Origin: Dehalococcoidia bacterium
GTDB lineage: Bacteria; Chloroflexota; Dehalococcoidia; Lucifugimonadales; UBA2962
Length of the DNA: 28,613 nucleotides
Reading direction: 5' to 3'
Assembly: GCA_963579815.1 (NCBI GenBank)
Contig: CAUZIR010000001.1
Span: 1 to 28,613 of the forward strand
Shown here: piece after piece, positions 14,545-21,486 of the stretch
Numbering within the stretch: the stretch's first letter is position 1
Layout: each line of letters opens with the position of its first letter
Position numbers and translations under genes: made by a program
Notes under the pieces: model-generated
Seen by the model: the letters and a program-made list of their open reading frames with translations, nothing else
Database searches by the model: none
Told to the model about the DNA's origin: nothing

Positions 14545-15462
14545 TTAAAAGATTGCCAGAGGGTTCACCGGCGAGCCGGTGCCGCCCTCGAAAACGAGAG
14601 GAGCGCAAACCAGCATGAACTCGTAGCGGCCCGTTGCCTCACATGCGTTTGCCAGGGGTTCCAGCAACGCGTTGTCCACCATGGCCAGGCCGTACGCGTT
14701 TATGGCGCCGTGCACCGTCACCGGCAGGTCGTACTGGTTGGGGGCGGCGTCCTCCATGTCCCAGACAAGCAGGCCCACGTCGTTGTCCTTAAAGAACGGC
14801 AGCGTCGAGCCGTCCAGGCCGGGGTACGGCTCGCCAATCGGCGCATAGTAGCCGCCGTTTGCCTCGGCGTATTGCTCCCGGCCACAGTGAATGATCACCG
14901 CGTCGCCGGGCTCTAGAGTGATGCCTTCAGCGGCCACAATCTCTTCCAGTTCCCAGCCATGCACCGGAGTGTCCATCCTGACGAAATCGCCCCCCCTTTG
15001 CTTGGGCACGTCCAGTAGCACACCCCGGGTCACGATGCCGTCGCGCCACGCCTCGACGCCGCCGAACTTTGCGCCGTCAAAAGTCAGCGCCGTATTCGGA
15101 TCGTGTCCCTCGAACATGCCGTCGGCGTCCCAGAAGTGGCTGAGCGCGTCGATGTGGGTGACGGAGAAGCCATGCTGGAAGACCCCCAGGTAGTCCATGG
15201 CGGCACCGACGTCGTCACTAACCTCAATGGTCTTTACGAACTGCTGCACGGGTTGTGGGTTATCTGGCGCAGGCTCGGTCGGTAGGGCACGGCTGAGCGA
15301 CACGGTCTGTCCCGTTCGCACCAGCCCGGCCGCCTCGCGCCGTTTGGCGGGCGTGATCAGGTTCGTCGTCCCCGCGCTCGGGTTGTCTGGCCAACGACCC
15401 CAGTTGCTGCGGTCCTTCAGGTACCCGGCTATCTCGTCTTTACTCGGCAGGCGTCTGTCCAC
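14545..15462 (-). CDS. Cyclase family (kynurenine formamidase-like) metallohydrolase, copy 1
   Basis: NWGRW...N.ITP, HGFSVTHIDALSH metal motif, TRGVLLDVP, GTGSPVNPLAIF; GTG start at 15462 preferred (SD GGAGAG); TTG 15477 is in frame. Confidence 0.88.
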   Translation of the reverse strand: MDRRLPSKDEIAGYLKDRSNWGRWPDNPSAGTTNLITPAKRREAAGLVRTGQTVSLSRALPTEPAPDNPQPVQQFVKTIEVSDDVGAAMDYLGVFQHGFSVTHIDALSHFWDADGMFEGHDPNTALTFDGAKFGGVEAWRDGIVTRGVLLDVPKQRGGDFVRMDTPVHGWELEEIVAAEGITLEPGDAVIIHCGREQYAEANGGYYAPIGEPYPGLDGSTLPFFKDNDVGLLVWDMEDAAPNQYDLPVTVHGAINAYGLAMVDNALLEPLANACEATGRYEFMLVCAPLVFEGGTGSPVNPLAIF

Positions 15463-15569
15463 TAGCGTGCTCTCCAATTCAACTTTTTACCCCGATGCCT
15501 CCCGGTTCTTACGGAAGAGGAGGGGGCTGGCAACTCACCCTAACAGGCTCGCCTGTGCCCGCTGTGTAA

Positions 15570-16503
15570 CTACAGAATCGCTACCGGGTTGGCGGGCGAG
15601 CCTGTGGCTTCGGTAATGACGAGCGGGTTGAGCGTGAGCATAAACTCGTATCGATCTGCCTCCTCGCATGCCTGAGCGAGGGGCTCCAGCAACGCGTTGT
15701 CCAGCAGCGCCACGCCGAAGTAGAACAGGGCCGCGTGCACGCTCAGCGACAGGCCGTACTCGTTCGGCCACTGGTCCATCATGTCCCAGCCAACCAGAGC
15801 TACATCTGTCTCCTTAATGAACGGCAGGCAGCTAGAGTGCAGCCCGGCCCAGTTACCCGGCCACTCGGGGTGCCCCGCCCAGCGGCCGTCATGGTCCCTG
15901 GCGAAGGCTTCTCTACCCGAGTACACCAGTAGCGCGTCACCAGAGCCTAGAGTCACGCCCTGCGCGGTCGCCGCATCCTCAAGTTCGCGTCCGTGCACAG
16001 GCTCGTCATACGTAACGTATGGCGTGCCCCGCAGTTTGGGGATGTCGAGTAGCACGCCCCTGGTCGTCAAGCCCTGCGCCCACTCCTCGATGCCCCCGTA
16101 GCGCACGCCCTCACCCCGTATCTCCACGTCCGGGTCGGCGCCCGTCCCACATGCCGTCCGGGCTCCACATGTGCCCCAGTCCATCCACATGAGTGTGAGA
16201 AGTCCCGTGGAAGGCGACGCCGATGTAGTCGTGAGCGGAGCGCCAGTCGCCTATGTACTCGTCAACGGTGTAGGTGAAGCGCTGGGCCGGTTGAGAGTTC
16301 TCCGGTTTCGGCTCCGTCGCCCAGGGTCGGGCGAGCGACACCGCTCGTCCGCTTTTCACCAGCGCCGCCGCCTCGCGCCGCTTCTCATCCGTGACTAGGT
16401 TTATCGCCCCGGCCGCTCCCCGGTCACCCCACCTGCCCCAGTTGCTGTTCGCACGCAGGTAGTCGAGCACCTCGTCCGCACTGGAAAATCTCTTCGCGTC
16501 CAA
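15570..16503 (-). pseudogene. Cyclase family metallohydrolase, copy 2, split by a single extra base
   Basis: ORF 16111-16527 gives the N-half (NWGRW, HGTSHTHVDGLGH) and ORF 15570-16190 the C-half (TRGVLLDIP, ATGSPANPVAIL). Removing one base at 16137/16138 restores GMWDGRDPDVEI, colinear with copy 1 GMFEGHDPNTAL. Confidence 0.8.
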
Positions 16504-16644
16504 TAGCGTTCCCCTCTCTCGTGTCACTTTCTTCGGACACTTTTTACAGATATGGCCGAGGCTATTGTGGTGCGGCCGGGCCTGTCAACGGCCCCGCTGC
16601 TAACCGGGAGACTCGTAAAAGCGCGAGTGCGGGTAAAAGTCCTC

Positions 16645-17724
16645 CTAGGCCCAGTCGAAAGAAGAAACCCAGGCCAACCTCGTCAAACGGCTGCCACTGA
16701 GCGGCCCCGAAGTCGCTTCGCCAGAGAACGGGTCCCACGCCGACCCCGTTTGCGAGTCAAAAAAGTTGTCGGCACCTGTGCCGAAGGTAAGTGGCCCGTC
16801 CCGGCCGGGGGGCGTGGCGAGGTAAACATTCACCTCGCGTGTCTCGGAGTCCACGAACACCACCACGGGCCTGTCCCCAACCCGGTCGTTCACCACTCCC
16901 GCCTCGGCCACATCCGGGTATCGGTATGCGCTGGCGTCCGTGCCAGCCGTGACACCGATGACGAAGAAGTCGGTGCCGCCCGTCGACTCGAAAACGCCGA
17001 TACGCGCGCTCCCCTCCACTGCAAGCACCTGTGTCTCGGGATGCCGGGCCACCCAGCTACTGAAAGGTTCAATGCCGACCGGTATCAGGTCGAGCCGTGT
17101 ACCAGCAAGCTCGCCCTGAATGGCCGCCCCCCACGGCTGCGACCAGACGGAGCCCGACTCGTGGTCCCACCAGGTCATTGCTCGCATGAACAGCGCGCCC
17201 TGGTTGCCGAGCGTCAGCACCCTGTCTCCCACCCGCCGGTCATGCACGAGACCGGTATAGCAAATCGGTCACCAGGTGACGAGTATCGGTATGCCCCCAA
17301 CCTCGTCATTGACCATCTCCCTCCATTGCAAGTAGCGAATGGGGTAGGCGCGGGAGTCGCCATTAATGGAAACCCCCATCACTAGGTCGTCTGGCTCAAG
17401 GCCCGACTCGGCGGGTCGCACGAACTGCGGGTCGTAGATCGGCTCAATCGAGTCCCGCCGCAGCAGCTGGCGGAAATCGTCCAGCTGGCGCGGGTCACCC
17501 CCAGACAAGATGCTCTCAAGCAGAGTGGCAGCCCCGGTCACTGGCGGGCCTGTGGACTCGGCGACAGAGTCGTCATGCGGCAAGCCGTCCCCGTGTCCGG
17601 AGGCGCCCGGCATCCCCGACTCGCCCGGCATACTGGGCTCACCGCAGGCCGCAGCCGCCATGAGCACAACCAGGCCGACCGCCAGGGCGACCATCTTGCC
17701 GCCCCCTTTGGGGTTATGAGCCAA
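16645..17724 (-). CDS. DUF3179-family lipoprotein, probable selenoprotein (UxxC), with TAG at a probable Trp codon near the C-terminus
   Basis: ORFs 17269-17724 and 16645-17247 are in the same frame, joined by TGA at 17271-17269: ILVTW-TGA-PICYTG. Family-like motifs DSIEPIYDPQF, SRAYP, WREMVND, WDHESGSVWSQ; lipobox AAAA-C. Start may be ATG 17694. Confidence 0.8.
17236..17271 (-). promoter_or_regulatory. SECIS-like hairpin following the in-frame UGA of the DUF3179 gene
   Basis: mRNA sense: UGA CCGAUUUGC UAUA CCGGUC UCGUGCAU GACCGG; 6-bp upper stem starting 14 nt after UGA, G-containing apical loop. Confidence 0.65.
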
Positions 17725-17871
17725 CGGCCCGGACCTTATCTGGACGAAGTAGGAACTTCATAAAAGATACGTTCATCGCTAACACTGTGGTTAGATGACG
17801 TATGGACCCGGAAGGGTACACGTGGCGTCGGTTTTCCGGCGCCACTGCTCGTCGGGCAATCGGAGCAAGCG

Positions 17872-17880
17872 TGGTATAAT
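17872..17880 (+). promoter_or_regulatory. Extended -10 promoter of rpsF-ssb-rpsR
   Basis: Perfect TGGTATAAT 93 nt upstream of the rpsF start. Confidence 0.65.
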
Positions 17881-17973
17881 CCGCGTTTGTCACCAGCGTC
17901 GTAACCTGACCGGGCAGGCGTACCCTGGCTGGCCGCTTTTTACGAAGACTGAAATAGAGATAGAGATATAGAT

Positions 17974-20617: not shown

Positions 20618-21100
20618 ATGGTCAGGCCTCGCAATCTAGGCCACGTCGTACTCAGGGTGCGAAACGTGGACCGGGCACAGACCTTCTACACCAGCCTCCT
20701 GGACCTCGACGTCATGGCCCGCTACGGGGACGACGCGGTGTTCCTTAGCTCCGGTAACGACTCCTCCCACGAACTCGCTCTCATGTCGGTGGGTGAGGAC
20801 GCTCCCGGCCCCGAGTCCAACCGGGTTGGCATGTACCACTTCGCCTGGCGTTTCGCAGAACTCGCTGATCTTCGCGCCCTGCGCACCCAACTGGCAGAGG
20901 CCGGGGTAAAGGCGGGTGTGGGCAACCACGGCATCTCTATTGGCATCTACTTTTTCGACCCCGACGGCAACGAAATAGAGTGCTACTTCGAGCTACCTAA
21001 AAAGCACTGGCCCTCCGGCGACATCTTCGCCGGACAGTACTTCCCTGACGGCCTCGACACCGACCTGGCCAAAGTAATACAGGCGGCAGTGGCAAGTTGA
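20618..21100 (+). CDS. VOC (glyoxalase/extradiol dioxygenase) family protein
   Basis: LGHVVLRV...FYTSLL, HELAL, GMYHFAW, NHG..IGIYFFDPDGNEIE. Confidence 0.88.
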   Translation: MVRPRNLGHVVLRVRNVDRAQTFYTSLLDLDVMARYGDDAVFLSSGNDSSHELALMSVGEDAPGPESNRVGMYHFAWRFAELADLRALRTQLAEAGVKAGVGNHGISIGIYFFDPDGNEIECYFELPKKHWPSGDIFAGQYFPDGLDTDLAKVIQAAVAS

Positions 21101-21486
21101 AAAAGCCTGAGGTCTACAGCAAAAAGGCCCAGTTCTACTGCAAAAAGGGCTGAACAACCTGTAAGAGAGCGCGTGAGACGCTCTCAGGCCTGGGTGTGGA
21201 GCTGACCGAGCGCGACATGTTCAAGCACCCTCTGACAGAGGCTGAACTTGGGGCGCTAATTGGCGGCCGACCCGTGCGGGACTTCTTCTCGTTTAAGAGC
21301 CCATCGTTCCGCAAACTCGGGCTGGACCGCGAAGGGCTCACCGACTCCCAGATGCTATCGATGATGTCTGGCGAACCGCGCCTCATACGGCGGCCCCTGG
21401 TCGCCATACTCTCCGGTACGGGCGTCACGGGGAACCACGTCATCGTGGGTAACGCCGCCGCCGCCTTCGAGCAGGCCTTCGGTTAA
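21097..21486 (+). CDS. ArsC/Spx-like thioredoxin-fold protein, probable selenoprotein (UxxC), 129 aa
   Basis: Frame of ORF 21196-21486 extends upstream through TGA 21151-21153 to TTG 21097: MKKPEVYSKKAQFYCKKG-TGA-TTCKRARETLSGLGVELTERD...PLT..EL...KSPSFRKLGL...EPRLIRRPLV. Confidence 0.82.
21151..21188 (+). promoter_or_regulatory. SECIS-like hairpin following the in-frame UGA of the ArsC/Spx-like gene
   Basis: UGA ACAA CCU GUAA GAGAGCG CGUGAGA CGCUCUC AGG: perfect 7-bp upper stem, 7-nt G-containing loop, bulge and short lower stem. Confidence 0.7.

Follow-up and report, generated by a model that had tools for sequence, protein, structure and literature searches.

DUF3179 proteins have been catalogued as a selenoprotein family with the motif UxxC/T (PMC9312934, 2022; PMC13188914, 2026), and both of these reviews credit Zhang and Gladyshev 2007 (PMC1976440). 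In line with this, the product name in use at NCBI is 'DUF3179 domain-containing (seleno)protein', as found for the SAR202 protein P0008, which is 44% identical to the protein described here over 97% of the query. The two reviews and the NCBI name agree with the sequence-only reading of the locus, which had held that the selenocysteine (Sec) trait of the family is not new, and because DUF3179 is already listed as a selenoprotein family, the finding is an ordinary one in this respect.

The gene analysed here is a new, mis-split member of this known family, encoded on the minus strand of a 28,613-nucleotide stretch of DNA from a Dehalococcoidia bacterium (contig CAUZIR010000001.1 of assembly GCA_963579815.1), the whole of which is called the window. 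It resembles the described members in belonging to the same Pfam family, in having Sec as the first residue of U-x-x-C with Cys in the homologues, and in the presence of a hairpin downstream of the UGA. It differs from them in that the copy of the window was unannotated, being split, and in that a TAG removes its last 15 residues; otherwise, it is the same in kind.

The second system for comparison is fdhF of Escherichia coli, in which a hairpin inside the coding sequence also follows the UGA, with a G and a U in the apical loop; the genome of the window likewise has selA, selB, selC and selD. In contrast to fdhF, the stem of the window is a plain one of 6 bp with an 8-nt loop in which these bases are G25/U26, and the binding of SelB to it is something that we infer. 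In fdhF, the loop bases are G23/U24, which places them 2 nt nearer to the UGA, and the stem has a bulged U.

From the evidence presented below, we consider it very probable that the locus is one minus-strand gene for an exported, probably lipid-anchored DUF3179 protein, in which the UGA at 17269-17271 is decoded as selenocysteine.

One reading frame with an internal TGA

Translation of the minus strand from 16645 to 17724 yielded a 151-codon frame, the TGA at 17269-17271 and a 207-codon frame, and the frame never shifted. In the list of open reading frames for this strand, the 151-codon frame (17269-17724) was accompanied by a 200-codon ORF (16645-17247) in the identical frame. The gene thus runs from a TTG start to a TAG over 359 codons with one internal TGA, and it was recovered as one 359-residue match in a six-frame search of the genome. 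The peptide across the TGA reads GGIPILVTW-U-PICYTGLVHDRRVG, or ILVTW-U-PICYTGLVHDR in its shorter form. When the whole product was compared with the Pfam model of DUF3179 (PF11376), it scored 206 bits (E 1.1e-60) against a gathering cut-off of 27 bits, with a domain that spans the TGA, whereas no model was matched in a search of NCBIfam. Therefore, the claim that two ORFs in one frame are separated by a single TGA was borne out by the translation and by the domain. The in-frame TGA is assigned to U152, and its partner in the UxxC motif, Cys155, is encoded by the TGC at 17260-17262 and is nearly invariant in the alignment (A3). Two candidate starts can be read directly in the sequence within 17692-17724: the TTG at 17722-17724, which gives an N-region with two Lys, and an ATG at 17692-17694 with AAGGGGG 7 nt upstream.

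The conservation of the TGA was followed in 40 related genomes by six-frame search, and a DUF3179 protein was present in 26 of them. Nine of the genomes were further members of the genus, and in eight of these the top match had exactly one internal TGA (40-72% identity); in seven of these eight the coverage extended from residues 12-59 to 359; the ninth genome yielded a short fragment only. One TGA was also found in many homologues from other families of the order. The column was constant, VTW-U-P[IL]C, and the paralogues without TGA read TYCPLC there, as had been anticipated from the VTYCPLC-like CxxC of the family. A wider sample of 80 further loci was taken from public genomes of Dehalococcoidia, Anaerolineae and Acidimicrobiia and from single Gemmatimonadales and Acidobacteria MAGs, and among its 87 motif sites the same column was TGA in 79 and TGC or TGT in the other eight. 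The UGA is, as in other selenoproteins, conserved in orthologues and aligned to Cys in homologues. The comparison of homologues proposed with the sequence-only reading therefore gave TGA, not TGC or TGT, in the relatives, and Cys in the more distant paralogues.

The prediction that standard gene callers split the gene in two was confirmed by the protein database, in which only a 200-residue C-terminal part of the product (P0002) is present, together with comparable halves of its relatives. In a collection of 5.8 billion proteins, roughly half of the 120 matches listed were half-length fragments of about 200-240 residues. The gene callers thus treat the TGA as a plain nonsense codon, and if they were right, the two frames would be the remnant of a dead Cys-type DUF3179 gene. 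However, a column that is TGA 79 times and TGC or TGT eight times in practice rules out a nonsense mutation: the same codon is found in the same column in 79 genes of 40-78% identity, both halves of the gene are under purifying selection, a conserved and covarying hairpin follows, and the genome contains the complete Sec machinery. A dead gene is, on these grounds, very improbable.

The genome of the window is a 74% complete MAG of 1.79 Mb in 290 contigs. A tRNA-Sec was detected with 65.1 bits (cut-off 47), and ARAGORN also called it as tRNA-SeC with the anticodon TCA; selA (525 bits), selB (351 bits) and selD (371 bits) were all found over their curated cut-offs. The SelD protein itself is encoded with a TGA in its active-site peptide CAGUASK (contig C33, 6754-7674, locus L020). 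The search for the Sec machinery, which had been named as a check on the selenoprotein assignment, was consequently positive for tRNA-Sec, selA, selB and selD in the same genome.

A genome-wide reassignment of TGA, to Trp as in code 4 or to Gly as in code 25, would explain the open frame without any involvement of Sec, and TGA is indeed the stop of only one of the 14 confidently identified genes of the window. Nevertheless, rpsF in the window stops at a TGA exactly where its Pfam domain ends, and TGA closes 299 of the 1001 long open frames of the genome, so that TGA is not reassigned genome-wide. As, in addition, the homologues have Cys, and not Trp or Gly, aligned to the in-frame TGA, and the genome encodes tRNA-Sec, selA, selB and selD, such a reassignment is hardly conceivable.

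The hairpin downstream of the UGA

From the UGA on, the mRNA reads UGA-CCGAUUUGCUAUA-CCGGUC-UCGUGCAU-GACCGG. It contains a SECIS-type hairpin (17236-17255, minus strand) with a perfect 6-bp stem, detected by folding and by comparison of homologues, which lies inside the coding sequence over the codons for TGLVHDR. A hairpin right after the TGA had been described from the sequence; the perfect hairpin is there, but it begins 13 nt after the UGA and is not strictly adjacent to it. When folded as a single sequence it was no better than shuffles (z -0.43), and an Rfam scan of 16500-17900 with E up to 10 gave no match, a result that carries no weight as bacterial SECIS elements are poorly covered there. 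The hairpin needs comparative support, and its significance comes from the comparison of homologues only.

In every TGA gene, a hairpin was found at a constant distance from the UGA, with a stem of 6-8 bp that is specific for the clade. Three versions of the stem were distinguished: CCGGUC...GACCGG, which corresponds to the peptide GLVHDR; CGGGCAU-CGUGU-AUGCCCG, with the peptide GIVYAR; and CGGCGAUG-GUC-CAUCGCCG, with the peptide AMVHRR. In the GIVYAR group, 98.6% of the cells pair and two pairs are changed on both sides (G-C to C-G and G-C to A-U). The covariation score of this group was reached by none of 500 shuffles, and pairing dropped to 17-51% when the register was slid. As non-synonymous substitutions, these double changes also alter the peptide (Gly/Ala to Ala/Gly and Gly/Ala to Asp/Val), so that the pairing of the RNA shapes the sequence of the protein.

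The codons of the TGLVHDR group gave a similar picture. Among 37 distinct TGA genes with this peptide, the stem codons ACC, GGT and CGG were present in all 37 and GAC in 35, while the loop codons varied (CTC/CTG, GTG/GTT/GTC and CAT/CAC). Four Cys genes with the TGLVHDR peptide used GGG/GGC and CGC/CGT/CGG codons and formed no hairpin, and in six Cys paralogues of the relatives the hairpin was absent at the corresponding place. In the same genome as the window, the selD and ArsC-like genes have hairpins 11-13 nt after their UGA. The downstream hairpin expected of a bacterial selenoprotein gene is thus present with comparative support, as it is kept in the TGA genes and its stems covary, and it extends beyond the single sequence in which it was first noticed.

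The hairpin at 17236-17255 is taken to be the SECIS of the DUF3179 gene on the strength of these comparisons. During reading of the mRNA, SelB with Sec-tRNA(Sec) would bind this hairpin, 13 nt downstream of the UGA, and the bound SelB would deliver Sec in place of termination, giving U152-P-I-C155.

At two loci, three DUF3179 paralogues were found within about 3 kb (L082 at 1939, 3216 and 4437; L085 at 1939, 3216 and 4421). In each case two of them are Cys-type and one is Sec-type; their motif peptides are nearly the same, and the hairpin is in the Sec copy only. Separately, an ArsC/Spx-family gene was observed on the plus strand of the window at about 21100-21486 (Pfam ArsC, 1.4e-9). Its upstream extension through a TGA reads KKG-U-TTC, with a 7-bp hairpin (GAGAGCG...CGCUCUC) 11 nt after the UGA, and from these features it is probably a second selenoprotein of the window.

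The C-terminal TAG and the state of this copy

The stop at 16645-16647 is a TAG that takes the place of the conserved second Trp in the C-terminal DWAW motif. This motif could be located in 32 other genes, and Trp occupies the position in each of them, so that a stop is seen only here. Orthologues read FDWA-W-EDFFPHSRFYQPSR where the gene of the window has TAG, and the C-terminal end of the orthologue P0005 is ...FDWAWEDFFPHSRFYQPSR. The TAG corresponds to a single G-to-A change (TGG to TAG), sits 15 codons before the ancestral stop and removes the last 15 conserved residues. Behind it, at 16590-16644, the former tail EDFYPHSRFYESPG and the former stop (TAG, 16590-16592) can be read in frame and are conserved by comparison with P0005. 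The length of 359 aa given in the sequence-only reading is therefore right as a count of codons up to the TAG, but this TAG replaces a conserved Trp and the old frame runs for 14 conserved codons more, to 16590.

The D-W-A-W-x-D-F-[FY]-P tail of DUF3179 proteins is thus missing from the product, although it is readable behind the TAG, which, judged from these letters, shows damage or error and not a different family. As the 14 codons behind the TAG stay in frame, are conserved and end at the ancestral stop, the change would be very recent or a base-call error. The TAG would accordingly be either a recent nonsense mutation or a wrong base, and the product is therefore slightly truncated unless the base is wrong. 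A second copy with the TGG allele was absent from the assembly of the window. Pyrrolysine at the TAG was also considered and rejected, as no PylS was found above the cut-off and the column is Trp in the homologues; the PylS search matched solely the window's own lysyl-type tRNA synthetase of class II (24.7 bits).

The TAG could also be a sign that the gene, while a true selenoprotein gene in its lineage, is decaying in this genome, and that the loss of the W-EDFYPHSRFY tail leaves the product crippled or unstable. Of the 33 genes with a located motif, only this one has a stop at the DWA-W column; the tail belongs to the Pfam model (match 16627-16962, with 1 TAG); a conserved Trp column is interrupted by an extra TGA in a second DUF3179 paralogue of the genome; and the adjoining cyclase gene is frameshifted. 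Decay is nonetheless a rather unlikely explanation: the codons after the TAG remain in frame and conserved up to the ancestral stop position, the gene is otherwise intact, the truncated protein is modelled with confidence up to residue 359, and a base-call error is possible in a MAG of 290 contigs and 74% completeness.

The second Sec-type paralogue is encoded on the minus strand of contig C27 (5396-6319, locus L053), with the motif TW-U-PLC and a hairpin of its own. Its extra TGA lies in RSL-U-SHF, and by-eye alignment places it at the Trp of S-x-W-S-Q (W194, invariant in A3); like the TAG, it is a G-to-A change in TGG, and the orthologues of the genomes G004 and G005 have one TGA only. The neighbour of the PF04199 cyclase family (15570-16527, minus strand) is split by a frameshift near 16117-16142 (GGGCGCCGACCC, not a long homopolymer), and its pieces align end to end with an intact paralogue at 14545-15477 with 50% identity. 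Together, the TAG, the frameshift of the cyclase gene and the extra TGA on C27 suggest assembly errors or gene decay in the MAG.

Predicted fold and putative function

The N-terminus of the product, (M)AHNPKGGGK-MVALAVGLVVLMAAAA-C27, fits a loose lipobox pattern. At 17644-17691, the hydrophobic signal segment VALAVGLVVLMAAAA is followed by a lipobox-like AAAC ending in Cys27 (codon 17644-17646), and the pattern was found in 13 of 18 orthologue N-termini. The assignment of the protein as a lipoprotein, made from the sequence, is in keeping with the hydrophobic segment and the AAAC and with their counterparts in the orthologues, although the pattern fitted is a loose one, and the protein is probably exported and lipid-anchored. 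The Gly/Pro/Ser-rich linker (17485-17643) that joins the membrane anchor to the folded part is predicted to be disordered (AlphaFold2 pLDDT < 50 for residues 1-69 and 78-81).

The rest of the protein consists of two DUF3179 repeats, for which hhalign showed mutual homology (99.8%, E 3e-28). Repeat 1 (residues about 105-235, 17020-17412) carries U152-P-I-C155, and repeat 2 (residues about 245-359, 16648-16992) is without CxxC. This is the arrangement of DUF3179 proteins, two homologous repeats of which the first has a T-[WY]-C-P-L-C type motif, here TW-U-PIC. The AlphaFold2 model, built on 55 sequences, had a mean pLDDT of 82, with values > 90 for about residues 82-359; it is nearly all beta, and U152 is predicted to end a strand at 145-152.

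When the model was compared with known structures by VIA-align, nearly all of the 45 best rows were Rieske domains, with a maximum Z of 9.1. Repeat 1 matched the Rieske domain of 1z01_A (Z 6.5), and repeat 2 matched Rieske ferredoxins over 92-97 residues (Z 8.7-9.1). Foldseek also returned Rieske proteins, with probabilities of 0.95-1.0 in alignments of about 100 residues. Each repeat superposes over 91-97 residues on Rieske [2Fe-2S] domains such as those of 3gce (carbazole dioxygenase ferredoxin) and 2qpz (naphthalene dioxygenase ferredoxin), but, in contrast to these, the Rieske ligand boxes CxH / CxxH are absent from the DUF3179 product, and the Pfam Rieske model (PF00355) gave no match up to E 10. 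The comparison with a Rieske profile by hhalign was not significant (probability 1-10%), and a sequence profile search of the PDB gave a chance match only (E 1.7). Thioredoxin folds had no rows among the matches listed by Foldseek or VIA-align, and the model, being nearly all beta, does not have the CxxC at the start of a helix that characterises that fold. As judged from the model, DUF3179 shares a Rieske-like fold and is not a cluster-binding Rieske protein.

UxxC was at first equated with Rieske box II, but a tentative correspondence with box I is indicated instead by the hhalign alignment, itself non-significant, and by the place of the FDxxTG-like WDHESG (186-191). The predicted layout of the protein is given as a signal/lipobox segment, a disordered linker and two homologous beta-rich Rieske-like repeats without iron-sulfur ligands, in which the Sec/Cys pair would lie just past a strand of repeat 1. 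Matches to the Rieske domain itself numbered 61 in a genome of the same order (G018), mostly in open frames of 420-640 residues, compared with 1-3 in its relatives, so that Rieske-type oxygenases appear to have expanded greatly there.

The genes around the locus were also inspected. The neighbours in the window are rpsF-ssb-rpsR, which is divergent, and two cyclase-family genes, with housekeeping genes and the ArsC-like gene farther off; no thioredoxin-like neighbour was present in the window. Clustering of the flanking ORFs of 80 loci yielded no conserved partner gene, only antisense ORFs and local synteny (rpsF-ssb-rpsR and a leuB-type dehydrogenase). A single terminator-like site was found in the region, inside the coding sequence, a number within chance expectation.

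The extracytoplasmic CxxC/UxxC oxidoreductases fed by CcdA/DsbD are similar to the DUF3179 protein in that it too is predicted to be exported and membrane-tethered, with a Sec/Cys pair two residues apart. They differ in that DUF3179 is without a thioredoxin fold, and in that searches of four near-complete genus genomes for CcdA/DsbD and VKOR were negative. Specifically, neither CcdA/DsbD (PF02683), nor DsbD_2 above its cut-off, nor VKOR was detected in the genus genomes G003, G005, G006 and G007 or in G015 of the same order (92-96% complete), each of which has several exported CxxC/UxxC DUF3179 genes. A search for PF02683 (DsbD_TM) in the genome of the window, which is 74% complete, was likewise negative.

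With low confidence, the selenol/thiol pair may be the working site of the protein outside the cytoplasmic membrane, acting either as a redox-active selenylsulfide or as a site for a soft metal. Redox chemistry, for which the chances appear about balanced, is judged somewhat likelier than metal binding. The latter, a tentative alternative, would give U/CxxC the role of binding a soft metal such as zinc or copper, with a degenerate Rieske-type domain as its scaffold, in place of redox catalysis. In two related genomes (L139, 3050-7041; L140, 2012-6963), Fur, ZnuA and an ABC-3 permease are immediately followed, in one orientation, by a DUF3179 gene of the Cys type, and a Fur-like gene adjoins the Sec-type copy in locus L035. 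The fold in the model is that of a metal-cluster domain, no CcdA/DsbD or VKOR that could recycle a redox pair was found in the genus genomes searched, and DUF3179 has been tabled beside the metal-handling selenoproteins MerT, P-type ATPase and CobW-like proteins. However, the two znu-linked loci are close kin, with Fur proteins 76% identical, and so count as one event; the other 80 loci are without metal genes in their 3-kb flanks, and the Fur-ZnuA-ABC-3 context does not recur among them. In addition, a single CxxC provides two ligands, and there is no further invariant Cys or His in the alignment. The gene order at L139 and L140 suggests that some DUF3179 proteins may be linked to metals.

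A more specific and unlikely proposal is that DUF3179 consists of two degenerate Rieske-type domains in tandem, with a loop near the old cluster site rebuilt as Cys/Sec-x-x-Cys. In the organism of the window, the selenolate-thiolate would then serve surface metal handling, for example the capture or buffering of zinc or copper, and the protein would not be an oxidoreductase fed by CcdA. This reading of surface metal handling is put forward for the genus because no CcdA/DsbD or VKOR was found there. Between redox chemistry, which is still preferred, and metal binding, the fold, which resembles that of Rieske domains, and the lack of CcdA in the genus genomes searched narrow the options for the function of DUF3179 without settling them.

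For the family as a whole, the DUF3179 genes offer a clean textbook case of an RNA element that moulds protein sequence, with three clades, three stems and three peptides. The main value of the gene described here is the correction of its annotation. As standard gene callers cut the DUF3179 selenoprotein gene in two, too few selenoproteins are counted for marine and subsurface Chloroflexota.
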